Source of the DNA: Gammaproteobacteria bacterium
GTDB lineage: Bacteria > Pseudomonadota > Gammaproteobacteria > Burkholderiales > Gallionellaceae
Reading direction: 5' to 3'
Length of the DNA stretch: 64,000 nucleotides
Assembly: GCA_018820925.1 (NCBI GenBank)
Contig: JAHJNJ010000017.1
Location: 8,064 to 72,063, forward strand
The notes beneath the pieces are model-generated. The model saw nothing but the letters and a program-made list of their open reading frames with translations. It was not told the origin of the DNA and did not search any database. The translations under genes were made by a program, and so were the position numbers. Position 1 is the stretch's first letter; each line of letters starts with the position of its first letter. Shown piece by piece: positions 47,610-64,000 of the stretch.

Positions 47610-47639
47610 TTGACAGCCCGCAACCAACTCCCCTACAGT
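47610..47639 (+). promoter_or_regulatory. 18-bp-spacer promoter, copy 1 of 5
   Basis: TTGACA-GCCCGCAACCAACTCCCC-TACAGT. Confidence 0.65.
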
Positions 47640-47693
47640 CCGGACAAATCGCTTAATGAACGTTGATTGCACCAACCAAATGCAGGAGCCACC

Positions 47694-48377
47694 GTGGTGA
47701 ACGTGTACCGGCACAACAAGTCTCTCTCCGCTCCTCTCGCACTGATCGCCCTGGCCCTGTTCTGCATGGAGGCGACGGCCTTCGAGGCGGCGTTCGAAGA
47801 GGCTTACACCCCCTCCGGCGTTTACTCGCAAGCCGGTTTCCATTTCCTGGTGCGCGAAGGCATCACCGGTGGCGGGGACACCCTATCCGGGATCACTTTA
47901 TCCAACGGCACAAAGAGTGAAATCATCGCCGGCGGTGCCTATCAGATCGGCCTGGGCACGCGTTATCAACTGGATGTTGTCCCGGTTTCGCTCGCACTGA
48001 GCGTCAACTACCACTACGACGCAGACCATAATGAATACGACGACGCCTCATTCCGGCGTGTCCCGCTCGAAGCCCTGCTCTACATCGAGATGCCGGGCAA
48101 CCTCCGCCTGGGTGCGGGAACCCGCTACGTTCACTCGGCAAGAGCGACCTCAACCATCAACGGCGTATCCGAAAAGATCGCGTTCAAGAACACCAGGGGG
48201 AGCGTTGTCGAGATCGGCTATCACGTCGCACCCTACGGCTGGGTCGACCTGCGCTATGTAAAAGAAACCTATCAGGTCGAGTCCTACTCCAGCACGGGAG
48301 ACGCAAACCCGGCAATATGGGGCAACACCCCTTACGACGGTGCGCACGTCGGTTTGTTCATCACTTTCGAAAACTGA
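47694..48377 (+). CDS. Putative outer-membrane beta-barrel protein
   Basis: AGGAG RBS and GTG; signal peptide; alternating strands; C-terminal VGLFITFEN. Confidence 0.6.
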   Translation: MVNVYRHNKSLSAPLALIALALFCMEATAFEAAFEEAYTPSGVYSQAGFHFLVREGITGGGDTLSGITLSNGTKSEIIAGGAYQIGLGTRYQLDVVPVSLALSVNYHYDADHNEYDDASFRRVPLEALLYIEMPGNLRLGAGTRYVHSARATSTINGVSEKIAFKNTRGSVVEIGYHVAPYGWVDLRYVKETYQVESYSSTGDANPAIWGNTPYDGAHVGLFITFEN

Positions 48378-48403
48378 ATTCCGTCGCCCGCTATCAGGCA
48401 GGA

Positions 48404-48612
48404 TTGACACCGCCCTCGCAACTCCCCTAAAGTTCGCATCAATTGCAAATCCGTCGGAATGCATGCGCGCCGCAAAGCACGGTGCGCGGCTGCCGAAGGA
48501 CCCTCCAGAACGAGGCTGGCGCAAGAATATACCCCGCACATGCGGGAGATATCGCCGCTATCAGGACTTGTTCGAAAGGAGGATCACCTGACTTCACTTC
48601 TCACCGATCTTC
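48404..48612 (+). ncRNA. Promoter plus conserved structured leader/ncRNA candidate (copy A)
   Basis: TTGACA-N18-TAAAGT, then blocks shared in order with 63393-63604; predicted stems show compensatory changes. Confidence 0.55.
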
Positions 48613-48750
48613 ATTACGCCGGCACGATACATCGCGTTCCCGGAAATTCCTGCTGCAAACCCCGGCGTTACTGAACCAATATTTTCCTGAAATTCTTTGC
48701 GAGTGCGAATTGAAAGTCGATTCGATTATTTCAATGAAAGGAGAAACATC

Positions 48751-49605
48751 ATGGCTACGATACATGGAATGGGTATGGGGCGGCAACGCGATTTGGCGGA
48801 CTTCCGCGACCGCACGGTGCAGACTGATTCAATCAAGGCAATCCTGGGCAAATCGGCGCCGCTCAAAGCCGCCGCACGGAAACAACCCGCTTCCATCGAT
48901 TTGCGGGCATGGTGCTCGCCCGTCGAAAACCAGGGCAATCTGGGATCGTGCACCGCCAATGCGGGGGTCGGCATGCTTGAGTATTACGAACGCCGCACCT
49001 CGGGCAAGCATATTGACGGATCGCGCCTGTTTCTCTACAAGGTCACGCGCGAACTGCAGGGAATCAAAGGCGATGACGGCGCCCAATTGCGCGACGTCAT
49101 GAAAGCCATGGTGCTGTTCGGCGTCCCGCCGGAAAAATACTGGCCGTATCTCGTCGACAAATTCAACGACGAACCGAGCAATTTCTGTTACGCCTTCGCG
49201 CAAAACTATCAGGCGCTCCAATATTACCGTCTCGATCCTGCAGGCACATCGCCCACCGATGCGCTTGCCGCAATCAGGAAAAACCTGGCTGCCAAATTGC
49301 CGGCCATGTTCGGTTTTTCCGTATACAGCTCCATACCGCCCCTGGGCGATGGCAAAGGAGAGATACCGTTCCCCGAACTGGGCGACTCCCTGGAAGGCGG
49401 TCACGCCGTGCTTGCAGTCGGCTACGACGACAGCAAGAAAATCGGCAAGACCAAAGGTGCCTTGCTGATCCGCAACTCATGGAGCACAGACTGGGGCGAC
49501 AAAGGCTACGGCTGGCTGCCCTACGCCTATGTCGAACAGGGACTCGCAGACGATTTCTGGTCCATGGTCAAGGCAGAGTATGTGGACACAGATTTATTCA
49601 AGTAA
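48751..49605 (+). CDS. C1 (papain-like) cysteine peptidase, no signal peptide
   Basis: QGNLGSCTANA (Gln/Cys), GGHAVLAVGY (His), IRNSW (Asn); AAGGAG RBS. Confidence 0.9.
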   Translation: MATIHGMGMGRQRDLADFRDRTVQTDSIKAILGKSAPLKAAARKQPASIDLRAWCSPVENQGNLGSCTANAGVGMLEYYERRTSGKHIDGSRLFLYKVTRELQGIKGDDGAQLRDVMKAMVLFGVPPEKYWPYLVDKFNDEPSNFCYAFAQNYQALQYYRLDPAGTSPTDALAAIRKNLAAKLPAMFGFSVYSSIPPLGDGKGEIPFPELGDSLEGGHAVLAVGYDDSKKIGKTKGALLIRNSWSTDWGDKGYGWLPYAYVEQGLADDFWSMVKAEYVDTDLFK

Positions 49606-49671
49606 AGCGCGCGGCGCGAATGACAGACAAATCGACCAACAATCTTCGATCAATCGGGAGGTGTACCAATC

Positions 49672-51342
49672 ATGCGCAACAGACAAGAGAAAGACCAGTT
49701 GAGTGTTCAAGCCATAGCCGGGACCCATGTGGTATTGCTCGGCATTAACCTGCCCAAAGCAAAATGTTCCGGATTGCTCGGCTTCGCGATCCGGCGTGAA
49801 GACCATACCGAGGGGGAACGCTACTGGTTGAGCGGATACAAAACCTTCGCCAGCGTCGAACCCGATCCCGCACCCGGCGCACAATATTCGACGCGGCGCC
49901 ACCCGATACAGGGATTCACATGGTCGGATTTTTCGGCCAAGCCGGGTTACGACTATACCTATGAGGTCGTGGCAATGCGCGGCTCGCCGTCGGCACCGGA
50001 TGAGGCCGAACGCGTGAGCGTAAAGATCAGCACCGAATCCGAATCGCCAACCGGCAGCAAACACCACGTGCACTTCAACCGGGGTGCGGCGGCATCGCAG
50101 GAATACACGCGGCGCTTCGGCGACAAACGCCCTGAAGAAATCGGACAGTCGGCTTTCAACTGGCTGTCGCGCGGCGCGGCAGAATCAATCAAACAACTCA
50201 TCGAACGCGCCGCCGATGCGGGTTGGGGACTGCGCGTGTGCGCCTACGAGTTCACCGATGACCATGTGCTGCAGGCGCTCAAGGACGCGCACAAACGCAA
50301 GGCGGACGTGCGCGTGCTGTATCACGCACGCAATGACAGCACTAAAACCGGTAACGAAGAAGCGATCAAAAAATATGCCCTGTCCCGGATATGCAAGCCG
50401 CGCAATGCCAAAGGCCTTTCACTCTCGCACAACAAGGTAATCGTCCTCACCCAGGGCGGCAAGGCACAGGCGGTACTTACCGGCTCGACCAATTTCAGCG
50501 AGGGCGGCATCTACGGCCACAGCAACGTCGTGCACATCTGCGAAGACCGCAACATTGCCGCGCAATATCTGTGGCTATGGAACGAACTCGCCAAGAATGA
50601 AGACCGGCGTTATGCGGCCCCGTTACTGGCGGAAAAAACGCCGCTGCCCGCCGACCCGAAAACGCCCGGCACCTCTCCCATCTTCAGCCCGCGCGCCGAT
50701 TTGTCCGCACTGGAATGGTATGCCCGGCAGGCCAAGGACGGCGGCGGGGCGCTGTTCATGACTTTCGCTTTCGGCATGAACGACCTGTTCCAGGATGCGT
50801 ACCGCGATGGTAAGGCGAAACTGCGCTACAGCCTCATGGAACAAATGAGCGGCCCGACCCGAACCCCAGCGCAGAAAAAAGCGAACGAAGCCAAGATCAT
50901 CGCATTGCGCAAAATGGTCGAAAACAAATTTGCCATCGGCTCGCAATTGAAGGATGGCACCTTTGAACGCTGGCTTGACGAAAGCTTGAGCGGTCTCAAT
51001 GTCCACGTGAAATACCTGCATACCAAATACATGCTGGTCGATCCGCTGGGCAAGAATCCGCTGGTGGTCAGCGGCTCTGCCAACTTCAGCGAGGCTTCCA
51101 CCACTTCCAACGACGAGAACATGCTCGTCATCCGCGGCGACACACGTGTGGCCGATATCTACCTGGGCGAATTCATGCGCCTGTACCGCCACTATGCGTT
51201 TCGCGACTGGCTGTCCTCGCAACCGGACAACCAGCAGACCGAAGCCAAAGTGTCCCACCTCGACGAAAAGAATACCTGGTGGAAGCGATATTTCGGCACC
51301 TCGTTCGCCTCGCGCCAGCGCGCATACTTTGCCGGGAAATGA
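49672..51342 (+). CDS. Phospholipase D/nuclease superfamily protein with two HxK motifs
   Basis: HNKVIVLT..LTGSTNFS and HTKYMLVD..VSGSANFS. Confidence 0.85.
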   Translation: MRNRQEKDQLSVQAIAGTHVVLLGINLPKAKCSGLLGFAIRREDHTEGERYWLSGYKTFASVEPDPAPGAQYSTRRHPIQGFTWSDFSAKPGYDYTYEVVAMRGSPSAPDEAERVSVKISTESESPTGSKHHVHFNRGAAASQEYTRRFGDKRPEEIGQSAFNWLSRGAAESIKQLIERAADAGWGLRVCAYEFTDDHVLQALKDAHKRKADVRVLYHARNDSTKTGNEEAIKKYALSRICKPRNAKGLSLSHNKVIVLTQGGKAQAVLTGSTNFSEGGIYGHSNVVHICEDRNIAAQYLWLWNELAKNEDRRYAAPLLAEKTPLPADPKTPGTSPIFSPRADLSALEWYARQAKDGGGALFMTFAFGMNDLFQDAYRDGKAKLRYSLMEQMSGPTRTPAQKKANEAKIIALRKMVENKFAIGSQLKDGTFERWLDESLSGLNVHVKYLHTKYMLVDPLGKNPLVVSGSANFSEASTTSNDENMLVIRGDTRVADIYLGEFMRLYRHYAFRDWLSSQPDNQQTEAKVSHLDEKNTWWKRYFGTSFASRQRAYFAGK

Positions 51343-51379
51343 GCTGCGAAATTGGTGCCTGACACAGCGCTGCGCATAG

Positions 51380-51408
51380 AAAAAGGCGACCCGACGGTCG
51401 CCTTTTTT
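51380..51408. terminator. Bidirectional terminator
   Basis: AAAAAGGCGACC-cgac-GGTCGCCTTTTTT between convergent genes. Confidence 0.85.
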
Positions 51409-51444
51409 AACTGGTAACAAGTGCCGCTCTCAGGCGCCAGACCT

Positions 51445-52173
51445 TTACTCCAGCGTCGCTTCCTCGATAAGCACCTTGTAGGCATAACCCGAACCGAAGT
51501 CCTTGTCCGTACGAACAGTCCCTTTAACAGTCACGACATCCCCAACCCTGGTTTCGCTCTGCGAGGTCACCAGAATATCGTTCGTGTCGTCAGTAGCCGA
51601 TCCAGAACCGTCACGCAGGTGGATCCAGTTCTTGCCCATGATGCTTGGGTTGAACTTCACTACCCTGCCGCGCAGTTGGACAGTTTTGTCCTTGAGATCG
51701 GCGCTGCTGGTGACAATCTCGGAAACCGTGTACGCGTTCGCACCGCTGGCCTTGGCAACCGGCGCTTCGTTAATCGTTTCCAGCTTCTTGCCCGGAACAA
51801 GCGGATAGGCCGTGCCCAGGCCATGCCCGGTCGGCGCCATTGCAGTTGCACTTCCCAATGTGCCGAACAGAATCGTCGGGAAGGTTTTGTTCAGTGCCTT
51901 GCTGTGAAAGTTGTTCATCACCACCCCGTTTTCAACGGTGACGGTGCTGCCTTTCCTGACCTTGGCCGTCATCACCGCAGCCCATAGTTCGCCGTCCCGG
52001 GTTTTGAGACGGAGGAAGGTGTAACTGTCGACATCCTTGACCTCAAGCACCTTGCCCGTCATGGAAACGGCTGGCGCTGTCGGCATGGCGGCGGGGGGCA
52101 TTGTGGCAGGTGTTTCAGATGCAATAACGAGCGTCGAAAAAAATAACATGCAAATTGCCAACAATGCTTTCAT
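51445..52173 (-). CDS. Exported tandem OB-fold protein
   Basis: Signal peptide; GKVLEVKDVDSYTFL; RGRVVKFNPSIMGKNWIHLRDGSG. Confidence 0.65.
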   Translation of the reverse strand: MKALLAICMLFFSTLVIASETPATMPPAAMPTAPAVSMTGKVLEVKDVDSYTFLRLKTRDGELWAAVMTAKVRKGSTVTVENGVVMNNFHSKALNKTFPTILFGTLGSATAMAPTGHGLGTAYPLVPGKKLETINEAPVAKASGANAYTVSEIVTSSADLKDKTVQLRGRVVKFNPSIMGKNWIHLRDGSGSATDDTNDILVTSQSETRVGDVVTVKGTVRTDKDFGSGYAYKVLIEEATLE

Positions 52174-52349
52174 GGTCTGACTACTCCTTCTTGTAAAGTT
52201 CGCAAAGTGTAACAGGACAAAAAATTCCGGTCATGCCCGCCTGGGGGATGTGAGGGCTGTTGCACCGATAAAGTTGCATCGGATTGAAAATATCGACGTG
52301 GCGCAGGTGGCAGTACCCCTGCCGAATACAGGACTTCCTGCCCGGAACT

Positions 52350-54995
52350 TTATGTTGTTGCAGTGCGGTACAGCCAACCGCGCCGCACCATCCATTTTTC
52401 GATCTCCACGGCAAAGAACACGACACTGGATGAAATAATGCAAATTGCCAGTTCGCCCGGGCTGAGCGGCTTTGTTTTGAAAATCTCGTTGAAGAGCGGC
52501 AAATAGATTGTCGTCATCTGGAGCATAAAGGTAAAGATGATGCTTGCCGCCATCGCCGGGTTGGAAAAGAAGCCGACACTGAACAAGGATTCCTTTTCCG
52601 AGCGTATGGCCATTACATGGGCAAGTTGCGACAGGGTAAGCACTGTGAACACCATGGTTTGCCAGTTTGCCGAACCACTGCGCATACTCCAGGCTTGTAT
52701 CAACAAACATATCCCTGCCATCAACATCCCGACCCAGATCATGTGCTGCCACATGCCGTGCGCGAAGATGCTTTCCTGCGGGGGACGCGACGGACGGCGC
52801 ATGATGCCGCGCTCGGCGGGTTCTATTGCCAACGCCAGACCGGGTAAACCATCGGTGACCAGATTGATCCACAAAATCTGAATCGGCAACAGCGGAATCG
52901 GCAATCCGAGAAACGGTGCCAGAAAGATCGTCAGGATTTCGGCTGAGTTGGTGGAAATGCCGTAGCGGACGAATTTGCGGATATTGTCGTACAGGCGGCG
53001 CCCCTGGCGCACGGCATGCACAATGGTGGCGAAATTGTCGTCGAGCAACACCATATCCGCCGCCTCGCGCGCCACATCGGTGCCGCCCTTGCCCATGGCA
53101 ATGCCGATGTCCGCCGCCTTGAGCGCGGGTGCATCGTTGACGCCGTCGCCGGTCATTGCCACCACTTCGTGCATATCTTGCAGCGCACGCACAATTTTGA
53201 TTTTCTGCGCCGGATTAACGCGCGCATATACCCTCACCTGCTTAACCATGGCTTCGAATGCAGCCTGATCGAGTTGCGCCAACTCCACACCGGTCATTAC
53301 GCGACCGTCGCCATCGTCAAGGATGCCGAGCTGGCTGGCAATCGCGCGCGCGGTGGCCGGATGGTCGCCGGTGATCATCACGGGTGTAATGCCGGCGGAA
53401 ATGCATTGTGCCACCGCTTCCTTCACTTCGCCGCGCGGAGGATCGATCAGCCCGACGAATCCCACAAAGACCAAATCCTGTTCCAGCTCTGCGTTGCGTT
53501 CGCTTTCCGGCAACGAAGGCCAGTGCCGAAACGCAATTGCCAGTACGCGCAAACCGTCTGCGGCCATGGACTCCGCCTGCCGCAGCAGCGCATCGGCATC
53601 CACGGCCTGTTCACCAGATGCGCCAAGCATGCGGGTACACTGCGACAACACCGTTTCCGGGGAACCTTTGGTATAGGCAACAACCTGCTCGGCGCTGGCG
53701 TGAAAAGTCGTCATACGTTTGCGCTCGGAATCGAACGGCAGCTCTTTCAGGCGCGGTGTTTCCAGTTCCAGCACTGATTTGTCATAGCCCGCCGCCTGCG
53801 CGGCATGCAGCAGCGCCGCCTCGGTCGGTTCGCCGCGCACCTTGTGGTGTTTGTCCAGAGATGCGTCATTATTCAGTGCCAGCGCTCGGAACAATGTCGG
53901 CCAGGGCTCGGCATCCCTTCCACCAGGCGTAGCGTCACGTATCGCACCATCGGCGTAGATCGCCGTCATGGTCATCTTGTTCTGCGTAAGTGTGCCGGTC
54001 TTGTCGGAGCAGATGAAGCTGACCGAACCCAGCGTCTCGACAGCAGGCAGGCGACGGATCAATGCCTGCTGTTTGACCATTTTATGCGCGCCCAATGCCA
54101 GCGAGATCGTCACCACCGCCGGAAGCGCAGACGGAATTGCAGCGACGGCAAGGCTCAGCGCGGTCATGAACATCAGCAGCAGCGGTTCGCCTCGCAACAC
54201 GCCAATAGTAAACACCAGTACGCAGATCGCCAGCGCTGCAATGGCAAGTTGTTTGCCCAAACGCGTCAGCCGTTTCTGCATCGGCGTCTTGCTTTCTTCG
54301 CTTGCATTGAGCAGCGCGGCTATCTTGCCCAGTTCCGTGTCCATGCCGGTTGTCACCACCAAGCCCTGCGCCCGGCCAAAGGTAACGATGGTGCCTTTGT
54401 AGGCCAGACATAGCCTGTCGCCCAGCGGAGCATCAAGCGCAGTCTGCGCCTGAGCCAGTTTTTCCACGGCGACCGATTCCCCGGTAAGCGCAGATTCGTC
54501 GATCTTGAGACGAGTTGTCTCGACAATGCGCAGGTCGGCGGGCACCACATTGCCCGCCTCCAGCAGCACCGCATCGCCTGGCACCAGTTCCGAGGCATTG
54601 ACCGTTTCCACGCGGCCATCGCGCAATACCTGTGCGCTCGCCTCCGCCATGCGCTTGAGCGCGGCCATGGCACGCTCCGCGCGGAATTCCTGGATGAAGC
54701 CGATCAGCGCATTCAGGATCACGATGACGATGATGGCGATGGTGTCACCCACATCGCCGACGACGCCGGAGATGATCGCCGCACCGATCAACACAATGAT
54801 CATGAAATCGCTGAATTGGTCGAGCAGCATGCGCCAAGGAGAACGCGCACGTTTTTCCTGCAGGGCATTGGTACCGAAACGCGTCAGCCGCTCGACCGCC
54901 TCCGCCGCACTCAGTCCGGAATGCAGGCTGGTCTCAAGGCGTTGCGCGACTTCATCGGCGCCCAGCGTGTGCCAGTTGTCGGGCTTATTGGGCAT
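52350..54995 (-). CDS. Type IIA (Ca2+-type) P-type ATPase
   Basis: DKTGTLT, TGES, PFDSERKRM, MITGDH, TGDGVNDAPAL, INLVTDGLP. Confidence 0.95.
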   Translation of the reverse strand: MPNKPDNWHTLGADEVAQRLETSLHSGLSAAEAVERLTRFGTNALQEKRARSPWRMLLDQFSDFMIIVLIGAAIISGVVGDVGDTIAIIVIVILNALIGFIQEFRAERAMAALKRMAEASAQVLRDGRVETVNASELVPGDAVLLEAGNVVPADLRIVETTRLKIDESALTGESVAVEKLAQAQTALDAPLGDRLCLAYKGTIVTFGRAQGLVVTTGMDTELGKIAALLNASEESKTPMQKRLTRLGKQLAIAALAICVLVFTIGVLRGEPLLLMFMTALSLAVAAIPSALPAVVTISLALGAHKMVKQQALIRRLPAVETLGSVSFICSDKTGTLTQNKMTMTAIYADGAIRDATPGGRDAEPWPTLFRALALNNDASLDKHHKVRGEPTEAALLHAAQAAGYDKSVLELETPRLKELPFDSERKRMTTFHASAEQVVAYTKGSPETVLSQCTRMLGASGEQAVDADALLRQAESMAADGLRVLAIAFRHWPSLPESERNAELEQDLVFVGFVGLIDPPRGEVKEAVAQCISAGITPVMITGDHPATARAIASQLGILDDGDGRVMTGVELAQLDQAAFEAMVKQVRVYARVNPAQKIKIVRALQDMHEVVAMTGDGVNDAPALKAADIGIAMGKGGTDVAREAADMVLLDDNFATIVHAVRQGRRLYDNIRKFVRYGISTNSAEILTIFLAPFLGLPIPLLPIQILWINLVTDGLPGLALAIEPAERGIMRRPSRPPQESIFAHGMWQHMIWVGMLMAGICLLIQAWSMRSGSANWQTMVFTVLTLSQLAHVMAIRSEKESLFSVGFFSNPAMAASIIFTFMLQMTTIYLPLFNEIFKTKPLSPGELAICIISSSVVFFAVEIEKWMVRRGWLYRTATT

Positions 54996-55989
54996 GTTCG
55001 AACAATATCCACGAGTTGAGCACATACAGCATGAGCAAGCCCAGGCTCACCCAGGTCAGCCCCAGCACGACACGGCCTTGAGGCCGGTAGATCAGGCCCA
55101 CGGTCACCAGCGCGCTCATCATCACGGCGGTGAAAGCAGTCAACGCGTGGCTGGTTTGCGCATGCGCAAGCAAAGGGCCTTTGGTGTAAAACACATCCAC
55201 CACCGCCAGCACCGCAATATCAAACAAGTTGCTGCCGAGCAGATTGGCAATGGCCATATCCAGCGCACCGATGCGCAACGCCGAAATAGTGACCGCCGCT
55301 TCCGGCGCCGAAGTCACGCCCGCCACCAGCAACGTGCCGACAAAACTCTGGCCCCAGCCCATCAGGTCGGAGATATCCTTGGCGATCACCGGCAACCAGA
55401 TACCGGCCAGCACCACCGCGAAAGCCGCCTTGGCGTAGCCGATGACAGCGCTGCGCAAGGTCACCTCAGGATAACGCTCGACTGAAGCCTCGGCATATTC
55501 GGACAGCGTACGGCGTTCATAGCTGTACACGGCGCGCATGGACACCAGGTAAACCAGCACGATCAGCGGCGTATAGAGCCCGACGAATCCAAGCGACATA
55601 TTCATTCCCGCATGATCCAGCAGCAAACTGAATCCGGCGAACGCGATCAGCATCGTGCCCAGCGCAGCCGACAGGATGTGGCCCTGTGCGGCACGCCCGT
55701 ACATGCTCTCGCGCCGGTACAACGCATCCAGCACTACCAGGATGGCAAGGTTGAATACCGTGCTGCCCAGCACCTCGCCGACCGCGATATCCGGCGAATC
55801 CGCTAACGTGACGGCGGAAATGCCGGTGATCAATTCCGGCAGCGAGGTTGCCGTGGCGAGCAGGATGAGGCCGATCCAGGAAGCGGAGATGCCGGATTTC
55901 TCGGCGATGATGTCGCCGTAACGTGAAAGGTAATAGCCCGCGTAAGCAATGACGGAAAGACAAATCAGGAATTCCAGCCAGATCAGCAT
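54985..55989 (-). CDS. Sodium:calcium antiporter (YrbG/CaCA family)
   Basis: Alpha repeats LATATSLPEL and GVTSAPEA, LLGSNLFD; GGAGA RBS. Confidence 0.88.
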   Translation of the reverse strand: MLIWLEFLICLSVIAYAGYYLSRYGDIIAEKSGISASWIGLILLATATSLPELITGISAVTLADSPDIAVGEVLGSTVFNLAILVVLDALYRRESMYGRAAQGHILSAALGTMLIAFAGFSLLLDHAGMNMSLGFVGLYTPLIVLVYLVSMRAVYSYERRTLSEYAEASVERYPEVTLRSAVIGYAKAAFAVVLAGIWLPVIAKDISDLMGWGQSFVGTLLVAGVTSAPEAAVTISALRIGALDMAIANLLGSNLFDIAVLAVVDVFYTKGPLLAHAQTSHALTAFTAVMMSALVTVGLIYRPQGRVVLGLTWVSLGLLMLYVLNSWILFEHAQ

Positions 55990-56088
55990 GTCAGTCGATC
56001 TCCCAAAATATGGCAAGGCACTTGCGTCGCAATATTACATTTTACATGCGTACCAATCGGCTCCGGCCGCAAAATCGGCAACACATAA

Positions 56089-56118
56089 TTGACACTACCC
56101 TCGCAATTCCCATACTGT
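56089..56118 (+). promoter_or_regulatory. 18-bp-spacer promoter, copy 3 of 5
   Basis: TTGACA-CTACCCTCGCAATTCCCA-TACTGT-TCGC. Confidence 0.65.
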
Positions 56119-56154
56119 TCGCCCAACCTGCAAATATAGCCACAAGAAAGAAGT

Positions 56155-57327
56155 ATGGGCATCAATCTCACACGACTCGTTTTACGCAAAGGCAACCAGC
56201 CGACGCGATACACCTGGTTGAAGCCGTTCTGCTTGGTGGCATGCAGCCTGCTCGTTTCCTGCGGCGGCGGCAGCGAAACACCGCCCCCGCCAGCTGCAAC
56301 GCGCACTTTCCTCATGGGCTTCTCGCCGTGGCCGTGGGACGCAACCCAGGAAGCGGTGGACTGGACCTACCAGGCCATCATGACCAACGGCGATATCGTC
56401 TCGCACCACATCGAAGAAGGTGTGCCCTGGCCGGAAGCATTGGCCGGTTCCGCTGTCCCGGCCAGTTATGCCAGCATGCTGGCAGACCGTGTCACCCGCA
56501 CACCCGCCGGGAAAAAAATCCTGCTGCAGATCAACCCCCTCAATCTTGGCCGCGACGGACTGGCCAGTTACCGCACCGATGCCGCCATCAACGCCGCGCT
56601 GACTGTCCCGTGGAACGGCTACGCCCTCAACGCAACGGAGGTGAAGACTGCCTTTGCCAACTATGCGCTGTATATGGTGAACACCATGCACCCGGACTAT
56701 CTTCAAATCGGCGTCGAGGTCAATTTGCTCAAGCGCAATAGTCCGGCGTTGTGGACGCAATATGTCGAGTTGCAATGCTCAACCTATAGCGCAGTCAAAG
56801 CCGTGCATCCGGACCTCCCCGTTTCCGTCTCGCTGTTCTCCGTCCCGTTCTTCCCGGAATGGTCGGGACCGGACAACCTGACCGATCAGCAGAATGCGCT
56901 GGCCGATGTTTCCGCCTGCAGCGACGTGATCGGCTTCTCGGTGCATCCCTTCATGAGCGCCCTGCTCGCCGACAGTTTTCCGGCGGACTATTTCGACCGC
57001 CTGTTCGCCTATACGACAAAACCCATCGCTATCACCGAGAGCAGCTACCCGGCACAGGAATGGAGTTCTGGCAGCTCGACCTGGAACGGCACGCAGGCCA
57101 AACAGGCCGACTTTCTGGACAAGATACTGACTGCCGCCCAAAGCCACCAACTGCAATATGTGATCTGGTTCACCGTGCGCGACTACGACCAGCTCTGGAA
57201 CGGCGCACTGGCACATGACCCGACTGCATTGATCTGGCGCGACACCGGGCTCTACGATGAAAACGGATTGGCGCGCGAAGCCATGACGACCTGGAGTAAC
57301 ACACTGAGCAAGACCTATCTGCCATGA
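56155..57327 (+). CDS. Putative glycoside hydrolase (clan GH-A TIM-barrel) lipoprotein
   Basis: Lipobox LVSC-GGG; IGVEVN (acid/base-like), KPIAITESSYP (nucleophile-like), GLYDENG. Confidence 0.6.
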   Translation: MGINLTRLVLRKGNQPTRYTWLKPFCLVACSLLVSCGGGSETPPPPAATRTFLMGFSPWPWDATQEAVDWTYQAIMTNGDIVSHHIEEGVPWPEALAGSAVPASYASMLADRVTRTPAGKKILLQINPLNLGRDGLASYRTDAAINAALTVPWNGYALNATEVKTAFANYALYMVNTMHPDYLQIGVEVNLLKRNSPALWTQYVELQCSTYSAVKAVHPDLPVSVSLFSVPFFPEWSGPDNLTDQQNALADVSACSDVIGFSVHPFMSALLADSFPADYFDRLFAYTTKPIAITESSYPAQEWSSGSSTWNGTQAKQADFLDKILTAAQSHQLQYVIWFTVRDYDQLWNGALAHDPTALIWRDTGLYDENGLAREAMTTWSNTLSKTYLP

Positions 57328-57388
57328 CAACCCATGGCATGGTTTGTCGTCGATTCAATGAGTCTGACTTTTGCGACGGAGCGACTGA

Positions 57389-57901
57389 ATGAACAAATAC
57401 ATACTGCTGCTGGTGCTGATTTCCGGCATCTTGTCCGGATACCTGATCGGTGACTACCGGAACAAAGACGCGCGCGAAGCGCTGAAAAAGGCGCTCGAAA
57501 CAGGCAAGACGCTGGACACAGAGCGCGAAGCCGCCATCACCCGGCTCAAAGCCGAACTGGACGGCATCACCGACAGGCATCGCCGGGAACTGGAAGCGAT
57601 TCGCAAAAGCAACGCTGCCAAAATCGCCGAATGGCGGCGTGCCAGGGATGGATTGAACGACCAGATCAAACACTCAAGCGCCAGACTCGCCGCATCCGAC
57701 AACCGGCTGAAAACACTTGCCGCCCGGCGCGATGCCGCATCCGGTGCCGAGAGGACAAAACTTGATCTGGAGATGGCGAACCTGCGCAAGGAGCGCGATG
57801 ATTTGCAGCGGGAAATCGAAGGCAACGCATGCCTGCAAACACGGGTTCCGCTCAGTGTGTCTGAAGCACTGAATGAAACACACATCGCGGGGAGCAAATA
57901 A
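57389..57901 (+). CDS. Rz-like inner-membrane spanin candidate
   Basis: Single N-terminal TM, long predicted coiled coil, C-terminal C-x4-VP-x-SV...LN. Confidence 0.6.
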   Translation: MNKYILLLVLISGILSGYLIGDYRNKDAREALKKALETGKTLDTEREAAITRLKAELDGITDRHRRELEAIRKSNAAKIAEWRRARDGLNDQIKHSSARLAASDNRLKTLAARRDAASGAERTKLDLEMANLRKERDDLQREIEGNACLQTRVPLSVSEALNETHIAGSK

Positions 57902-58218
57902 TGAAATCACCTTGCTTGAAACTCCTGCCGATCTTGCTGGGCAGTCTGTTCATCGCGGGATGCAACACACTTCCCGTTGCCTCGCATGCGATCGGTTGCG
58001 ATGTAAGCGCAGAACTGCTCTCCGGCAAATGCGCGGCGCCCAGGCCGGTCTCCAACGGCACGACTTACGCGGCGCTGGTCGACACCATGCAGGCAGATCG
58101 CAAGGCATTACAGGAATGCGGCAATATGACAGACGCATTGCGCGATGCTCTCCTGCGCTGCAATCAGGCGACCGGCGAGTACAACAGCAAGATCGATGCA
58201 CTTAACCGCGCGCGCTAG
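57901..58218 (+). CDS. Rz1-like outer-membrane lipoprotein (o-spanin) candidate
   Basis: Lipobox IAGC; CAAPRPV...TTYAAL...ALQECG; TAATG overlap with upstream gene. Confidence 0.6.
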   Translation: MKSPCLKLLPILLGSLFIAGCNTLPVASHAIGCDVSAELLSGKCAAPRPVSNGTTYAALVDTMQADRKALQECGNMTDALRDALLRCNQATGEYNSKIDALNRAR

Positions 58219-58382
58219 ACAAGCAGCCAAGCCGAATTGGTTCTGTCCAGAGCAGCAAGAACGATTCATACCCGAAAGCTCTTTTCAGGACCTGAACGGG
58301 CATGAATCAGTTGAGTAGATTTATATGCAGCGGTGTCATTACACCTTGGAAGCGGAAAAGACGCGAATACAACGCGCCTGAA

Positions 58383-58658
58383 TCAGTAAGCGGCAGGCGG
58401 TTCGGAAGCAGAAGGCGGTTCCGGAGTTGAGTCTTCAGCCACGGCCGACGCTACTGAAGGTTCACCGGCATTCGTATCTTCGTCAGCGGGCGATGCTTCC
58501 TGTTGCACGGCGGGGGTCTTGATGGCAGCCTGCTTCTTATCTGCGGCAGCCTTGCCCAGATTGACAATGGTCCCGGACATCATCGCCTTGAATGCAAAAA
58601 TGGCAATGATGCTCACCGCAACAACGATCAGCAGGCGTTTCAGGGCGCGTTCATCCAT
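58383..58658 (-). CDS. Small hypothetical membrane protein with acidic Ala/Pro-rich tail
   Basis: N-terminal TM LLIVVAVSIIAIFAF; low-complexity C-terminus. Confidence 0.55.
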   Translation of the reverse strand: MDERALKRLLIVVAVSIIAIFAFKAMMSGTIVNLGKAAADKKQAAIKTPAVQQEASPADEDTNAGEPSVASAVAEDSTPEPPSASEPPAAY

Positions 58659-59043
58659 GCCAATCAGTCTAGCAGAACATGCAAAGGGGGCGTACGGGTG
58701 AACTTCGCAAGTCCCCTTGCGCCAAGCCAGCCCGCTTCACGCGCATGTCCTGCCCTCCTCCCTTGGCTGCATCCGTAAACACCTGTCACACACCTGTAAT
58801 AATCCGCCTCTCCCGCATTCATTTAACAGCTTGTTGTATAAAGTTTTTCCGGTTTTTGCCGATTAAATTACCCATAAACCCTCAATGGTTCTGGCGCAAG
58901 AAAAAATATTATCGACACGTATCCATGGTTTGGGAAAAAGTGTACCTTTACGGAAAATAGTGGCTTCTATTCCTAAAAGAAAAAACTGCAACAAAACAAT
59001 ACGATATTTCGACATACGAAAATTGACCCGGGGTGAGGTTGAT

Positions 59044-60669
59044 GTGTTCGCGAATTTTCTCAATGCATGCCGTTGTTCCATTCAGTTCAAACTGTTCCTG
59101 TCTTTGACAGTGATCGTTGCGCTGAGCCTGACGGCCATCCTGGCCAGCCAGGTATATCTGGTGCAGGACTATTTCATTCGCCAGGCGGAATCGAATCTGC
59201 GCAGCAGCAACTATTTGTTGAGCCGCGTTCTGGCTGACCCCCTGTTTGCACACGATTTGGTGCAATTGCAGACCCGGTTGCAGGATATCCAGACCAAACT
59301 GCCTATCTGCAATTTTCAACTGAAGGACAATATCGGATCGGTTGTATACAAGGTTGGGAATGTACGCGCACGGGCCGATACCGAATTCAATCCGGACAAC
59401 CGCGACGGCTGCTATAACACGATTCTTCCCGTGATGTACGGCGACAAACTGATGGGTACAGTGCGCATGGGCGTGCGCACCGACGACATAGCGCAAGCCA
59501 GAAAAAAACTGATTCAGGAGAGTATGTTTTTCGCCTTGTTCTGGTTTGCCCTGTTCATGTTGCCTTTTTTTGTGCAAATCCGCCGCCTGATTCGACCATT
59601 AGCCTCCTTGAATGAAGCCGCAAAGCAATTCACCAATGGCAACCTTGAGTATTCATCGACGTTGCTTGTTCCAGGGAAAGACGAGATCTCGCAGTTAATC
59701 GTCAGTTTCAAGGGAATGGCCGAGACGCTGATCCGCAACCGCAAAGAACAAGCCGCCAACCTGGCTGCGCTCGACAATGAAAAATCAACCCTGTTCGCGT
59801 TGCTGTCCACCATACCGGTCGGCGTGATCTTTGCCGACCGCAGCCATATCCGCTATTGCAACAATGCATTCCGTCGCATGTGTCTGCTCAGTGCAAATGA
59901 AGACTTGGTCGGCATGAAGAATGACGCGATGCTGTTGCGCATAGGACAGATCGTGGCCGACGCGGATTTGTTTATCAAACTGATCGCCGAAATGCTGGAG
60001 ACCAGAAAACTGACCGAACCCATTTATTTCGCGTTGAAAGACGGCCGTACGCTGCGCCTGATTTCCAATGTCGTCATCGCGCCGGAAAACAACGGCTACC
60101 TGGGCCGTTTCTGGTTGTTCGAAGACGTAACCGAGGAGCAGAAAATCCTGCAGGAGGCCGAACAGCATGCAGAAGTCGACTCACTGACCTCGATCTACAA
60201 CCGTCGGCGCTTCGATCAGGACTTGAAGCGACTTATCGCCCAGGCAGATCGGGACCATTCGCAACTCGCCCTGCTGATGTTCGATCTGGATGACTTCAAG
60301 CCCATCAACGACCTGTATGGCCACGCCTGCGGTGACAAAGTGCTCAGGCAGGTCGCGCAAACCCTGTTACAGCAATTGCGCCGCAACGAAGTACTGTACC
60401 GGATAGGCGGGGACGAATTCGCCGTATTGCTGGTCAATGCAAGCGATGAAGAGATGGCAATTATTGCGGAACGTATCGTGCACACGATCCACTCCCTCGA
60501 AGTCGAATGCAGCGGCGAATTGGCAAACGTCGGTTGCAGCATGGGCATTGCGCGTTATCCGCGCGATGCGAATTCGATCCAGAGCCTGCTGGAACTCGCC
60601 GATCATGCAATGTACGAGGCGAAACAGCAGGGCAAGAATGACTGGGTGTTGCATCACACCAGAAAATAA
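59044..60669 (+). CDS. HAMP-PAS-GGDEF diguanylate cyclase
   Basis: Two TMs, HAMP (RPLASL..DEISQL), DSLTSIYNRR, RIGGDEF; likely GTG start at 59044. Confidence 0.85.
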   Translation: MFANFLNACRCSIQFKLFLSLTVIVALSLTAILASQVYLVQDYFIRQAESNLRSSNYLLSRVLADPLFAHDLVQLQTRLQDIQTKLPICNFQLKDNIGSVVYKVGNVRARADTEFNPDNRDGCYNTILPVMYGDKLMGTVRMGVRTDDIAQARKKLIQESMFFALFWFALFMLPFFVQIRRLIRPLASLNEAAKQFTNGNLEYSSTLLVPGKDEISQLIVSFKGMAETLIRNRKEQAANLAALDNEKSTLFALLSTIPVGVIFADRSHIRYCNNAFRRMCLLSANEDLVGMKNDAMLLRIGQIVADADLFIKLIAEMLETRKLTEPIYFALKDGRTLRLISNVVIAPENNGYLGRFWLFEDVTEEQKILQEAEQHAEVDSLTSIYNRRRFDQDLKRLIAQADRDHSQLALLMFDLDDFKPINDLYGHACGDKVLRQVAQTLLQQLRRNEVLYRIGGDEFAVLLVNASDEEMAIIAERIVHTIHSLEVECSGELANVGCSMGIARYPRDANSIQSLLELADHAMYEAKQQGKNDWVLHHTRK

Positions 60670-60683
60670 GCCGCAACCAGAAG

Positions 60684-60715
60684 AAAGAAGGCGACCTGCC
60701 GGTCGCCTTCTTTTT
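60684..60715. terminator. Bidirectional terminator
   Basis: AAAGAAGGCGACC-tgcc-GGTCGCCTTCTTT, 13-bp perfect stem between convergent genes. Confidence 0.85.
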
Positions 60716-60745
60716 ATGCCACACGAACGCTCGCCAAATTGACCT

Positions 60746-62590
60746 TCATTCCAGGCTCATCTCCATTTCCAGCCAGGTTTCCTCGAGTTCCGCCACTTTG
60801 CTTTCCAGCACCTCGCGCCGTGCATTCAAATCGGCGATGAAATCGCTGCTGCAATCCGCATAGGTAGACGGGTCGCCCAGTTGGCGAATGATTCCGCTCA
60901 ATTCGGTTTGCACCTTGCCCAATTCGGTTTCCAGCCTGGCCAGTCTGGATTGCAGCGCTTTCCGGTTTGGCCTGGGTGCTGCGGGCGGGCGCGGTTTGTC
61001 TGCCTTGACCTGAACGGTCTCGCGGCGGCGCCGGGTTTCAATCCATTCCTTGTAGTCTTCCAGATCGCCGTCGAACAATTTGGCGCTGCTGTCGGCGACC
61101 AGCCACAGTTCATCCGCCACCGCGCGTATCAGGCTGCGATCGTGGGATACCAGCACCACCGCACCGGTGTACTCCTCCAGCGCCAGCGTCAGCGCGTCGC
61201 GCATGTCCAGGTCGAGATGGTTGGTGGGTTCGTCGAGCAGCAACAGATGGGGCTTCTGCCAGGCCAGCAGCGCGAGCGCCAGACGGCTTTTTTCCCCGCC
61301 GGAAAAACTCTCCACCGGACGCTCCTCGCTGTTGCCCGCCAGCCCGAAACGGCCGAGAAAGGTGCGCAACGTCAGCGCGGTTTCCCTGGGTGCCAGCCGT
61401 TCCATGTGTTGCAGCGGTGTGGCCGTGCTGTCGAGGTTTTCCAACTGATGCTGGGCGAAATAGCCGATGCGAATATCCGGGGTTATTTCCAGTTTACCCG
61501 AGGTGGGTTTGAGTTCGCCAACCAGCAATTTGATTAACGTGGATTTGCCCGCGCCGTTCGGGCCCAGCAACGCGATGCGCGCACCGGCACGCAGGTTGAG
61601 TTCGACTTTTTCAAACAGCTTCTTGTCGCCGTACGCAAAGCCCATTCCTTCCGTGCGCAGGAGCAGGTCAGGGCTGCGTTCCGGCGCTTCGATCTCCAGT
61701 TCGAAGTGGCCGTCGCTGACATGCGCGGGGGCGATGCGCGTCAGACGCTCCAGCGCCTTGACGCGGCTTTGCGCCTGCTTGGCCTTGGTGGCCTTGGCAC
61801 GAAAGCGGCGCACGAAATCTTCCAGATGGGCGATCCTGGCTTGCTGGGTCTGGAAGGCCTGATTCTGCAATGCAATGCGCTCGGCACGCGCACGCTCGAA
61901 ATCGTCGTAGTCGCCCGCATAGCTGTCGATCACGCAATCATGCACGTGGGCAATGCGATTGACGGTCGCGTTGAGGAATTCGCGGTCATGCGAGACCAGC
62001 AAAATACTGCCGGGATAACGCGCCAGATATTGCTCCAGCCAGATGATGGCTTCGAGGTCGAGGTGGTTGGTGGGTTCGTCGAGCAGCAGCAGGTCGGCGC
62101 GGTGCATCAGCGCGCGCGCCAGATTGAGGCGCATGCGCCAACCGCCGGAAAAGCTGCTGACGGGGCGCTGCAGCGTGTCGGCCTCGAAGCCCAGGCCGCT
62201 CAGCAGTTGTGCGGCGCGCGCCGGGGCGCCGTAGCCGTCGATGGACTCGAAGTGCTGCTGCGCCTCGAACCAGGCCGCGTCGTGCTGTTCCTGCGCCAGT
62301 GTCATTTCCAGTTGGCGCAATTGGGCGTCGCCGTCCAGCACAAACTCCAGCGCAGGCTGCGCGGAATTGGCGATTTCCTGTTCCACGTAGCCCAGCGTCT
62401 TGCCGCTTTGCAGCGAGACTTCGCCGCCGTCGCATTTGATCTCGCCGCGAATCAGGCGGAACAGCGTGGATTTGCCGCAGCCGTTCTTGCCGACCAGCCC
62501 GATGCGCTGGTTTGCGAAGGCTTGCAGATTTGCGGATTGGAAGAGGGGAATGCCACCTTGCAGGTACGTCATGTTTTGAATATTCAGCAT
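60746..62590 (-). CDS. ABC-F family ATPase (YheS/Uup-like)
   Basis: Two ABC domains (GKNGCGKST, GPNGAGKST), FSGG signatures, LLDEPTNHLD twice, C-terminal coiled coil. Confidence 0.93.
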   Translation of the reverse strand: MLNIQNMTYLQGGIPLFQSANLQAFANQRIGLVGKNGCGKSTLFRLIRGEIKCDGGEVSLQSGKTLGYVEQEIANSAQPALEFVLDGDAQLRQLEMTLAQEQHDAAWFEAQQHFESIDGYGAPARAAQLLSGLGFEADTLQRPVSSFSGGWRMRLNLARALMHRADLLLLDEPTNHLDLEAIIWLEQYLARYPGSILLVSHDREFLNATVNRIAHVHDCVIDSYAGDYDDFERARAERIALQNQAFQTQQARIAHLEDFVRRFRAKATKAKQAQSRVKALERLTRIAPAHVSDGHFELEIEAPERSPDLLLRTEGMGFAYGDKKLFEKVELNLRAGARIALLGPNGAGKSTLIKLLVGELKPTSGKLEITPDIRIGYFAQHQLENLDSTATPLQHMERLAPRETALTLRTFLGRFGLAGNSEERPVESFSGGEKSRLALALLAWQKPHLLLLDEPTNHLDLDMRDALTLALEEYTGAVVLVSHDRSLIRAVADELWLVADSSAKLFDGDLEDYKEWIETRRRRETVQVKADKPRPPAAPRPNRKALQSRLARLETELGKVQTELSGIIRQLGDPSTYADCSSDFIADLNARREVLESKVAELEETWLEMEMSLE

Positions 62591-62628
62591 GGCGCAATAA
62601 TAACAGAGGGCGTCACCGTCAAGCCTTG

Positions 62629-62658
62629 TTGACACTAACCGACCAACTCACCTACAGT
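62629..62658 (+). promoter_or_regulatory. 18-bp-spacer promoter, copy 4 of 5
   Basis: TTGACA-CTAACCGACCAACTCACC-TACAGT-TCGC...TTGCAAATCCG. Confidence 0.65.
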
Positions 62659-62731
62659 TCGCCCCGCTTGCAAATCCGCCCCGCGCAAATCGAAATCCCA
62701 AACCCACTTTAAATGAAGGAGAACACCAAGC

Positions 62732-63154
62732 ATGTATAACCTGTACAAACCCGAACAACCCGCCGGCCTGATGGACTTCGTGCGTGCCGCCAAGTCCTGC
62801 ATCGTTGAAATCACGCCGGTTGAACTCAAGACCAGGATGGACGCCAACGAAGACCTGGTACTGATTGATGTACGCGAAGCAGCCGAGTTCGAGCATGGCC
62901 ATATCGGCGGCGCACATCTTGTTCCGCGCGGCATCATCGAAGCCGCCGCCGACACCAGCTACCCGAAACACTATGCACCGCTATCCGGCGCCCGCGACCG
63001 GCAGGTCGTTGTCTACTGCGCCACCAGCGGACGCTCAGCCATGGCTGCCGCCGTGTTACAGATGATGGGTTTCAAAAATGTGCTCAATCTCGCCGGAGGC
63101 TATGTACGCTGGGAAGCCGAAGGAATGCCGCAAGTTCACGAAGCGGAATACTAG
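62732..63154 (+). CDS. Rhodanese-like sulfurtransferase
   Basis: LIDVRE, GHIGGA, active-site YCATSGRS, NLAGG; AAGGAG RBS. Confidence 0.9.
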   Translation: MYNLYKPEQPAGLMDFVRAAKSCIVEITPVELKTRMDANEDLVLIDVREAAEFEHGHIGGAHLVPRGIIEAAADTSYPKHYAPLSGARDRQVVVYCATSGRSAMAAAVLQMMGFKNVLNLAGGYVRWEAEGMPQVHEAEY

Positions 63155-63392
63155 GCAACCGGTGGTTCCCGGAAGGGACCACTTCCACTCAATCCTGTCT
63201 TTCCCGCAAACGGGAACGGCAGGTCATCAAACAATCTGCGCACTGCGTAACAGGCAGACCCAAAGTTGCTCGGGCGCATTTTTCCAGAATTTCCGTTTTT
63301 GTGGAAATATCCGCAATTGCAGGGTTTGTGGACTGAATTGCGGGAAGATATCAATTCCCAAAGCCAATACCGCAGCAATTCGCACAACTTCA

Positions 63393-63604
63393 TTGACACC
63401 ACCCTCTCCGCTCACCTAAAGTTCACATCCCTTGCAATTCCGCCGCACGCACATCGCACCGCAAGCATGGTGCGAGGCTCACAGCGGAACCTCCAGAACA
63501 GGATGGCTGGCGCAAGAATCGTTTCCTGCAGCGCCGGAAACATTGCCAGCAGCACAACTTGTTCAGCGAAGGGGTAGCACTTGATTGCAGGACTCACCAG
63601 ACTT
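63393..63604 (+). ncRNA. Promoter plus conserved structured leader/ncRNA candidate (copy B)
   Basis: TTGACA-N18-TAAAGT and co-linear homology with 48404-48612. Confidence 0.55.
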
Positions 63605-63675
63605 CCGTTGCCCGGGCCGGACCTATCTGTGCCTCACGCTGCCCTTTCAGAATCAATCGCAATACAAACCGCTCC

Positions 63676-64000
63676 ATGAAATCGTCCCATTCACGTGGCT
63701 GGACGAGGCTATCCGGTCTTGCCGGGCTGGCGGGTGTCATGGCCCTGTTGTTGCTCAGTCTGGGAAACGAATACCAGGAAGCTGAAAAGCAAGCCCAGTC
63801 CGAGGTGGAAACACTCTCCCGCGTGCTGGAAGAACACGCACTGGCAATCGTGCAACAAGTGGACCTGGTATTGCACGATGTGCAAAGCCACGTGCGCCCG
63901 AATGACATGCGACTGAGGCACATGTCCGGCGATGCCAGCGCCAGGAAGTTTCACGCGTTGCTCAAATCCCATCATGATGACGTGCCGGAATTAAGCCTGC
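63676..64000 (+). CDS. Membrane sensor protein, periplasmic Cache-like N-terminus (partial, runs off window)
   Basis: Manual translation MKSSHSRGW...LAGVMALLLLSL...EEHALAIVQQVDLVL; open to window end. Confidence 0.65.
   Translation, partial: MKSSHSRGWTRLSGLAGLAGVMALLLLSLGNEYQEAEKQAQSEVETLSRVLEEHALAIVQQVDLVLHDVQSHVRPNDMRLRHMSGDASARKFHALLKSHHDDVPELSL

Follow-up and report, generated by a model that had tools for sequence, protein, structure and literature searches.

Translational riboswitches such as SAM-II, SAM-V, and preQ1-II hold the Shine-Dalgarno (SD) sequence inside a pseudoknotted aptamer, while leaders of the mgtA/mgtL type and translationally coupled upstream open reading frames (ORFs) represent control that depends on an ORF within the leader. 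At the DNA level, the reuse of promoters ahead of unrelated genes is a described phenomenon (PMC3575422). Here, we analyzed two intergenic regions (copies A and B of one element) in a 64,000-nucleotide (nt) stretch of DNA, referred to as the window, which corresponds to C8:8064-72063 in the 3.44-Mb, 52-contig genome of a Gallionellaceae bacterium (GCA_018820925.1). The element is a real, uncatalogued, Gallionellaceae-specific structured leader RNA that occludes the ribosome-binding site (RBS) and has been propagated together with its promoter. On balance, we lean toward reading it as a cis-acting leader for translational control, of the orphan riboswitch type, which travels with its own promoter and responds to a putative effector.

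Like SAM-II, SAM-V, and preQ1-II, the leader lies in the 5' untranslated region (UTR), has a predicted compact pseudoknotted fold with conserved junction and loop nucleotides and covarying stems, and contributes its SD as one strand of a conserved core helix, so that folding and ribosome access are directly coupled. It differs from these riboswitches in being much larger (~150 nt, two arms), in preceding genes without a metabolic theme, and in belonging to one bacterial family. Compared with riboswitches in general, it has a covarying structured domain, a position in cis within the 5' UTR, and a coupled expression platform in which the SD is the 3' strand of helix P3. As in mgtA/mgtL-type leaders, a short ORF can stand between the structured leader and the gene, and its translation plausibly decides downstream expression; unlike in those leaders, the peptide lacks both conservation and diagnostic codon runs, and about one-third of the copies have no short ORF. 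As with mobile promoters (PMC3575422), near-identical promoter regions are found ahead of non-homologous genes both within the genome and across relatives, but the unit described here carries a 150- to 250-nt structured leader with a buried SD, so that copying the promoter also copies a device for post-transcriptional control. Our search for literature linking Gallionellaceae, Sideroxydans, or Gallionella with a riboswitch or RNA motif found no report.

Distribution of the leader family

The two regions of the window (48380-48700 and 63370-63690) are 78% identical by column in a MAFFT alignment, and the sequence blocks listed for them in a first-pass annotation, made from the sequence of the window, were all found in the same order in both. 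The TTGACA-N18-TAAAGT promoter that the annotation assigned to both is the sole sigma-70-like site in each region. The same annotation described the element as present twice; both stretches are real, but two is an undercount, as a covariance model (R1; 150 positions, 37 pairs) returned nine matches in this genome, which holds at least eight full copies as well as truncated and promoter-only ones. Besides copies A and B, matches were located on contigs C51, C34, C14, and C48, with two more on C8 just past the end of the window, and two of the matches are split by repetitive extragenic palindromic (REP)-like insertions. Moreover, the genome has 11 sites that match the strict promoter pattern TTGACA-N17/18-TAnAGT, whereas 0.8 would be expected in its 3.44 Mb, an excess far beyond chance, and 10 of these sites are part of the leader family. 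The proteins encoded downstream of these 10 promoters are unrelated to one another (Peptidase_C1, GGDEF, Excalibur, receiver, DUF6804, rhodanese, and methyltransferase), as is typical of a reused promoter. The sole site outside the family, at C9:21256 (+), appears to lie directly upstream of a tRNA-like sequence (GCCCAGATGGCGGAATTGGTAGACGCGC).

Beyond this genome, BLAST detected the element in 64 of 151 Gallionellaceae genomes and in 10 of the 18 genera that these represent, with at least 157 matches when up to six were scored per genome, and copies were frequently grouped only a few kilobases apart. In a survey of 301 genomes from 142 genera of the order, R1 gave no match in families other than Gallionellaceae. 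An exact-pattern scan of one genome per species across 185,579 species retrieved records of Sideroxydans, Gallionella, Sideroxyarcus, Ferrigenium, and Gallionellaceae together with scattered unrelated taxa; after rescoring of the candidates with the model, only records of the Gallionellaceae type were positive. Carriage by phages was considered and rejected, since the four pattern matches in IMG/VR were all model negative. Around the window copies (window positions 47610 to 63422), full copies and promoter-only relatives are concentrated within a ~22-kb stretch of contig C8 that includes genes on the opposite strand. Because its genes lie on both strands, we regard this stretch as an island of genes driven by the leader and rejected an integron-like array of co-directional cassettes.

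The first-pass annotation had matched the element to no known riboswitch, and the searches agree. Rfam 15 gave no match anywhere in the window at gathering thresholds; at E values of up to 10, copy A gave only noise, copy B no relevant hit, and a consensus-like copy (copy C) no hit at all. Cyclic di-GMP, which had been suggested as a ligand to probe, found no support: the c-di-GMP-I model (RF01051) scored 13 bits against a cutoff of 35 bits (E = 7.2) on copy A only, with copies B and C negative, and true c-di-GMP-I elements occur separately in the same genomes. Genuine elements of that class were recovered from 24 of the 41 Gallionellaceae genomes sampled (42 to 84 bits), so the search was able to find riboswitches in these genomes. 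Two canonical c-di-GMP-I riboswitches are present in the genome studied here, at C33:36254-36342(-) and C31:4386-4467(-), with 79 and 60 bits, respectively. The leader resembles c-di-GMP-I in preceding heterogeneous signaling, surface, and phage-like genes, including one for a GGDEF cyclase, and copy A contains the strings GCAAA ... CGCAAAGC ... GCUGCCGAA, which make a weak match. In c-di-GMP-I, however, GGCAAA and CGCAAAGC form junctions beside the P1b and P2 hairpins, whereas the CGCAAAGC of the leader lies in a hairpin loop.

Secondary structure

The leader comprises ~150 nt arranged in two arms, a hairpin arm (P1/P2) and a long arm (P3 to P6). RNAalifold, run on MAFFT alignments of 5 and 28 copies that were built without the model, predicts P1 to P6, and the five pairings proposed by hand in the first-pass annotation all recur in both predictions. 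P1 is UCCGC/GCGGA and is accompanied by P1a, a short GC/GC helix; P2 is CGCACCG/CGGUGCG, capped by a conserved ACGCA-type loop; P3 is CCCC/GGGG; P4 is GAACAGG/CUUGUUC; P5 is GCUGGCG/CGCCAGC; and P6 is a variable hairpin. Covariation over 105 copies, aligned by fitting to R1, supports every helix. Standard pairs were found in 90% of cells, and 28 of the 37 pairs showed changes on both sides. The cells with double changes numbered 152, well above both controls (42 ± 5 in shuffled alignments and 22 to 65 when partners were slid out of register), an outcome in favor of the annotation, which had proposed a covariation check. Over the evaluations of the alignment, the tallies ranged from 28 to 30 pairs and from 152 to 154 cells with double changes. 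For instance, one P1 pair is CG in 68 copies and UA in 27, one P2 pair is AU in 55 and GC in 23, and P3, with 93.5% of its cells paired, has double changes at all four of its pairs. G-U pairs are frequent, so the transcribed strand is the one downstream of the promoter. A protein-coding origin, the exclusion of which had also been proposed, found no support, in that no frame stays open across the core in the 99 copies of a separate, structure-blind MAFFT alignment (lengths of 127 to 153 nt), with stops in 45 to 58 of the 99 copies per frame.

The CUUGC at the 5' end is able to pair with the GCAAG of the P5/P6 internal loop. Over the 105 copies, 96.6% of the cells in these columns are paired; the changes comprise six wobbles and a single AU/UA swap (CAUGC with GCAUG, locus L102), and a pseudoknot resting on this little variation is plausible. 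The single-stranded CUUGCA, GCACA, and ACGCA loop are invariant. Big insertions are confined to P6 or to the space between the arms, and the distal strands of P5, P4, and P3, the SD, and the AUG persist ~170 nt further on; as these natural insertions leave the distal strands intact, the long-range helices are supported. A variant subgroup from other genera of the family (L122, L124, L125, L127, and L129) has P6 swapped for a conserved ~170-nt domain containing GGGUUCGAGACAGGACCC and CGGAGAAGC..GCGGG.AACGGAAA, and its far side still has CGCCAG, CCUGUU, AAAGGGGAA, and AUG. These P6-expanded variants have no match in Rfam. A closing helix, P0 (5' CUUGCAAU with 3' AUUGCRAG), occurs in many long-form copies and shows compensatory changes there; it is missing from copy A, from a further copy (E), and from all copies in which the start codon opens the gene directly, and it was therefore rejected as a defining feature. 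As a separate observation, a REP-like palindromic element (CTGCGGAAGGGTGGCGGCGCAGCCGCCGGGCACCCACCGGCGTACCCCTTGCGGGTG) has repeatedly inserted in leader copies (C14:4834-5158(-), C8:73625-73915 just past the window, and loci L119 and L006), directly after CACTTGCA, between the arms, within P4/P5, or in the P6 loop.

In the window, copy A, its promoter, and its downstream genes are arranged as follows.

48404-48433, + strand: promoter TTGACA-N18-TAAAGT (TTGACA 48404-48409, C-rich 18-nt spacer, TAAAGT 48428-48433; 10/12 in the consensus scan)
48440-48585, + strand: leader core, a divergent member of the family (R1, 97.4 bits, E = 7e-20)
48442-48446 with 48521-48525, + strand: candidate pseudoknot, 5' strand AUUGC with partner GCAAG
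48450-48500, + strand: arm 1 (P1/P2)
48501-48506 with 48578-48582, + strand: anti-SD CCCUCC and SD GGAGG
48508-48514 with 48567-48573, + strand: P4, GAACGAG with CUUGUUC
48515-48521 with 48553-48559, + strand: P5, GCUGGCG with CGCCGCU
48532-48537 with 48542-48546, + strand: P6, CCCCGC with GCGGG
48586-48612, + strand: remnant of the 3' module, with CUG (48588-48590) in place of the usual UUG, and CUCACC at 48600-48605
48751-49605, + strand: gene for a papain-family cysteine protease, 3' of copy A (Pfam Peptidase_C1, 4.5e-16)
49672-51342, + strand: gene for a PLD-like protein, 3' of copy A (Pfam PLDc_2, 2.2e-23)

The corresponding features of copy B are given below.

63393-63422, + strand: promoter, TTGACA, 18-nt spacer, TAAAGT (10/12 in the consensus scan)
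63429-63578, + strand: leader core (R1, 147 bits, E = 4.5e-31)
63431-63435 with 63512-63516, + strand: candidate pseudoknot strands, CUUGC and GCAAG
63438-63443 with 63484-63489, + strand: P1, UUCCGC with GCGGAA
63454-63461 with 63469-63475, + strand: P2
63490-63494 with 63571-63574, + strand: anti-SD CCUCC and SD GGGG
63496-63502 with 63558-63564, + strand: P4
63506-63512 with 63544-63550, + strand: P5
63521-63526 with 63536-63541, + strand: P6, GUUUCC with GGAAAC
63581-63679, + strand: short ORF of 32 codons, with a UUG start six nt past the SD
63676-64000, continuing past the window, + strand: gene for a dCache-PAS-GGDEF diguanylate cyclase, 3' of copy B (Pfam GGDEF, 6.3e-49, PAS, and dCache_1; full protein taken from the genome)

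Translation signals

In 90 of the 105 copies, the conserved GGGG has a start codon 4 to 11 nt behind it (UUG in 55, AUG in 34, and GUG in 1), and by this arrangement GGGG is a true SD. UUG can be regarded as a working start, since several UUG codons open signal peptides (e.g., MKIAFASLLAALMFC...) and one methyltransferase family occurs with either AUG or UUG. The guanines of the SD are paired with a mean probability of 0.87 in thermodynamic ensembles. The first-pass annotation had proposed a new cis-regulatory RNA that sequesters an RBS, and the lack of an Rfam match, the covariation above controls, and the succession of SD and start codon bear this out.

About one-third of the copies have their start codon at the gene itself, and about half have it at an ORF of 16 to 60 codons. 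The short-ORF region holds a second module conserved at the nucleotide level, consisting of (U)CUCACCGAAnnUUCUUUgCnCAG (CUCACCGAAnnUUCUUU) followed by a covarying hairpin (e.g., GACCAGAUAAAUCGUGGUC). In copy B, the short ORF includes AUUGCAGG (63584-63591), which is able to pair with the 5' CUUGCAAU, and CUCACC (63593-63598), and its stop codon TGA (63677-63679) overlaps the ATG of the main gene (63676-63678) as ATGA. Among the copies, 32 of 55 short ORFs ended between -8 and +30 nt relative to a candidate main-gene start, compared with 34 of 108 for the two control frames (Fisher p = 0.0013, with copies that are not independent), and coupling of the short ORF to the main gene is suggested on these statistical grounds. 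A conserved leader peptide (MIARLTEH type) was also considered and rejected: the same nucleotides (UCUCAC ... CAGACCAGAU) are read in differing frames, and one copy does not have the start codon of that frame. As the frames differ between copies, it is the RNA rather than a peptide that is conserved in the second module. In addition, a second short repeat (CCCTCTCCCTTGCAGGGAGAGGGTTAGGGAGAGGG) was observed between the leader UUG and the body of the UbiE-like methyltransferase gene at L089, L111, L128, L036, L072, and C48:1300-1885(-), where it shifts the working methyltransferase start to a downstream ATG.

Transcription

A near-consensus sigma-70 promoter is located upstream of 86 of the 99 copies. 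The -10 hexamer ends 7 to 9 nt ahead of the C of CUUGCA, and from this spacing transcription should start 1 to 2 nt before CUUGCA, that is, before the pseudoknot strand. The sequencing runs that contain the window stretch are all of metagenomic DNA, the best being a biofilm metagenome, and no RNA runs matched the organism of the window itself. The search for a transcript, proposed with the first-pass annotation, was answered in part: at two loci, RNA sequencing (RNA-seq) contigs from a congeneric isolate cover the leader as well as the gene behind it. At locus L089:1-357 in one run (X28), a contig with a depth of 345 stops ~60 nt past the leader with a loose A-rich tail and the gene body has a depth of 16; in other runs, the 3' part of the leader and the gene have similar depths. 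Attenuation that depends on conditions, or a stable fragment of the leader, could explain this difference, which we mention as a lead only. In the window, a terminator-like hairpin, CGAATTGAAAGTCGATTCG followed by ATTATTTCAA, was noted at 48706-48724 (+), between the copy A leader and the SD of the protease gene, and could be an attenuator specific to copy A.

The window also contains relatives of the unit that have the promoter and little or nothing of the leader.

47610-47639, + strand: promoter-only relative, TTGACA-N18-TACAGT, with the same C-rich spacer and without the leader
56089-56135, + strand: promoter-only relative, TTGACA-N18-TACTGT, followed by a leader stub, CCUGCAAAU
62629-62690, + strand: truncated copy (TTGACA 62629-62634, TACAGT 62653-62658) with the first ~25 nt of the leader (GCUUGCAAAUCCGCCCCGCGCA)

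Downstream of the truncated copy lie a short 5' UTR that is unrelated to the leader and a gene for a rhodanese (62732-63154; Pfam Rhodanese, 5.8e-23).

Genes behind the leader

Pfam assignments upheld the view that the two window copies precede unrelated genes, a Peptidase_C1 and PLD pair in one case and a dCache-PAS-GGDEF protein in the other. Other copies in this genome precede genes for an Excalibur protein, a single-domain receiver, DUF6804 membrane proteins, and a UbiE-like methyltransferase. Across 92 instances in the family, the most common downstream products were class I methyltransferases (8), DUF3857/transglutaminase proteins (5), ATPases of the SMC_N (5) and AAA_21 (4) families, ORF6N proteins (4), GH108 proteins with PG_binding_3 (4), Peptidase_C1 proteins (4), and DUF6765 proteins (2). 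The gene set looks accessory, comprising signaling, surface, lytic, and defense-like functions.

Proposed regulatory mechanism

The most likely mechanism is effector-modulated sequestration of the SD, acting directly in some copies and via a coupled short ORF in others. Transcription from the sigma-70 promoter would begin 1 to 2 nt before CUUGCA, and the first ~150 nt would fold into an irregular hairpin (P1, P1a, and P2, with conserved internal loops) and a stack (P3, P4, P5, and the variable P6), with the two arms probably locked as a pseudoknot by the 5' CUUGC and the GCAAG of the P5/P6 internal loop. In the basal helix P3, CCCC would pair with the GGGG of the SD, 4 to 11 nt ahead of the UUG or AUG, and with the whole fold formed the RBS would be buried. 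We infer a putative effector that would stabilize or destabilize this fold and so set the level of translation; since the SD helix belongs to the conserved core, the likeliest polarity is that the effector-bound state would be OFF. The controlled ORF would be the gene itself in about one-third of the copies. In about half, it would be the ORF of 16 to 60 codons that runs through the second module (CUCACCGAAnnUUCUUU plus hairpin), with a tendency to end where the real gene begins, and in these copies control may be relayed through translational coupling or through protection against premature termination.

Several observations weigh against this reading. The 105-copy alignment was fitted to the model and is thus biased toward the structure, while the structure-blind alignment of 99 copies, analyzed with RNAalifold, was misaligned in its 3' half, so that it yielded no more than the pseudoknot and a few further pairs and gave no independent confirmation at that depth. 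The family is narrow and its sequences are alike, so much of the fold is invariant. In the thermodynamic ensembles, the SD was paired with its designated CCCC at a probability above 0.5 in just 44% of the copies, and in copy A no canonical start codon follows the SD. On the side of transcription, the RNA-seq data are assembled contigs that break in or near the repeat and reach upstream of the promoter, and they give no 5' end. The CTTGCA motif is retained in promoter-only stubs and is part of a near-palindrome, and its conservation could therefore lie at the DNA level, as in an operator. Finally, the 92 downstream instances show no metabolic theme that would point to a ligand.

Alternative explanations

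Among the alternatives, the one that survives best, albeit as an unlikely one, is a constitutive cassette in which a strong promoter and a stable 5' UTR are reused before newly acquired genes, with a fold that shields the 5' end, translation fixed at a low level, and nothing being sensed. It would account for the constant association of promoter and leader before non-homologous genes, often several within a few kilobases, for downstream genes that are accessory, heterogeneous, and without a common pathway, and for the promoter-only and stub copies, and promoter reuse is itself documented (PMC3575422). However, a 150-nt, two-arm, pseudoknotted fold whose loop and junction nucleotides are invariant over 10 genera exceeds what protection of a 5' end needs, and an SD held in a conserved, covarying helix argues for regulated access.

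Less probable still is that a dedicated RNA-binding protein or a trans-acting small RNA (sRNA) operates the leader, which would then mark a post-transcriptional regulon. Such a regulator would fit a heterogeneous gene set that resembles a global regulon, and the invariant CUUGCA, GCACA, and ACGCA loop could be protein contacts. CsrA, the obvious candidate for control through conserved GGA-like tracts and SD binding, was nevertheless rejected, as PF02599 is missing from all 21 genomes searched (this genome and 20 relatives), with Escherichia coli, Bacillus subtilis, and Thermotoga maritima positive as controls. Moreover, a whole-genome BLAST search with the leader gave further copies only and no antisense partner, and no candidate protein is consistently adjacent.

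Known RNA thermometers are short and poorly conserved in sequence. That the leader is a thermometer or another physical sensor, in which the SD helix melts with temperature or ionic conditions, is very unlikely; the SD does lie in a short helix of 4 to 5 bp beside an A-rich internal loop, but the extensive invariant sequence and the pseudoknot set the element apart from known thermometers, and the Rfam thermometer models gave no match to it.

We give marginally less credence again to conservation at the DNA level, under which the element would serve as an operator array, a recombination site, or a miniature mobile element, with no more than an incidental RNA fold. The ACTTGCAA(G/A)T at the predicted start is a near-palindrome kept even in stubs, copies cluster in islands, and REP-like elements insert into copies. 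Against this, compensatory and G-U changes are strand specific and maintain RNA helices between strands up to 200 nt apart, all copies face a gene with the SD and start codon at a fixed distance, and the island genes lie on both strands, unlike those of a cassette array. The fixed orientation relative to genes and the content of promoter, SD, and start codon likewise argue against a REP or miniature inverted-repeat transposable element, for which terminal repeats and target duplications were not searched for.

Least probable of all are independent sRNAs, the other option offered in the first-pass annotation, or type I toxin mRNAs with the short ORF as product: the leader has its own promoter and a compact fold, and in about half of the copies a short ORF follows a buried SD, an arrangement that resembles hok- or tisB-type mRNAs, but every complete copy has a co-oriented ORF just downstream, about one-third run straight into long genes, copy B has no terminator after the element, and the short ORFs are hydrophilic, with the conserved nucleotides in differing frames between copies and no peptide conserved.

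Biological significance

New signals sensed by RNA are found mainly through orphan riboswitch candidates. The translational control leader that we favor is large, well structured, and abundant, and its lineage consists of environmental iron oxidizers in which gene regulation is almost unexplored. It also offers a clear case of a promoter and a post-transcriptional device copied jointly before new genes, which bears on how regulons grow, and a covariance model would improve the annotation of Gallionellaceae genomes and metagenome-assembled genomes. More tentatively, the leader may represent a new riboswitch class of the iron-oxidizing Gallionellaceae that connects a cellular signal to an accessory regulon of signaling, surface, lytic, and defense-like genes and that spreads as a promoter-riboswitch cassette, sometimes acting via a coupled upstream ORF. 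Candidate signals for such a class would be, for example, a nucleotide second messenger or an alarm molecule of stress or phage infection. The genes driven by the leader include those for diguanylate cyclases, response regulators, secreted proteases, lysozymes, and defense-like ATPases, and discovery of the effector could therefore reveal a global switch for the biofilm or stalk lifestyle or for defense in these bacteria.

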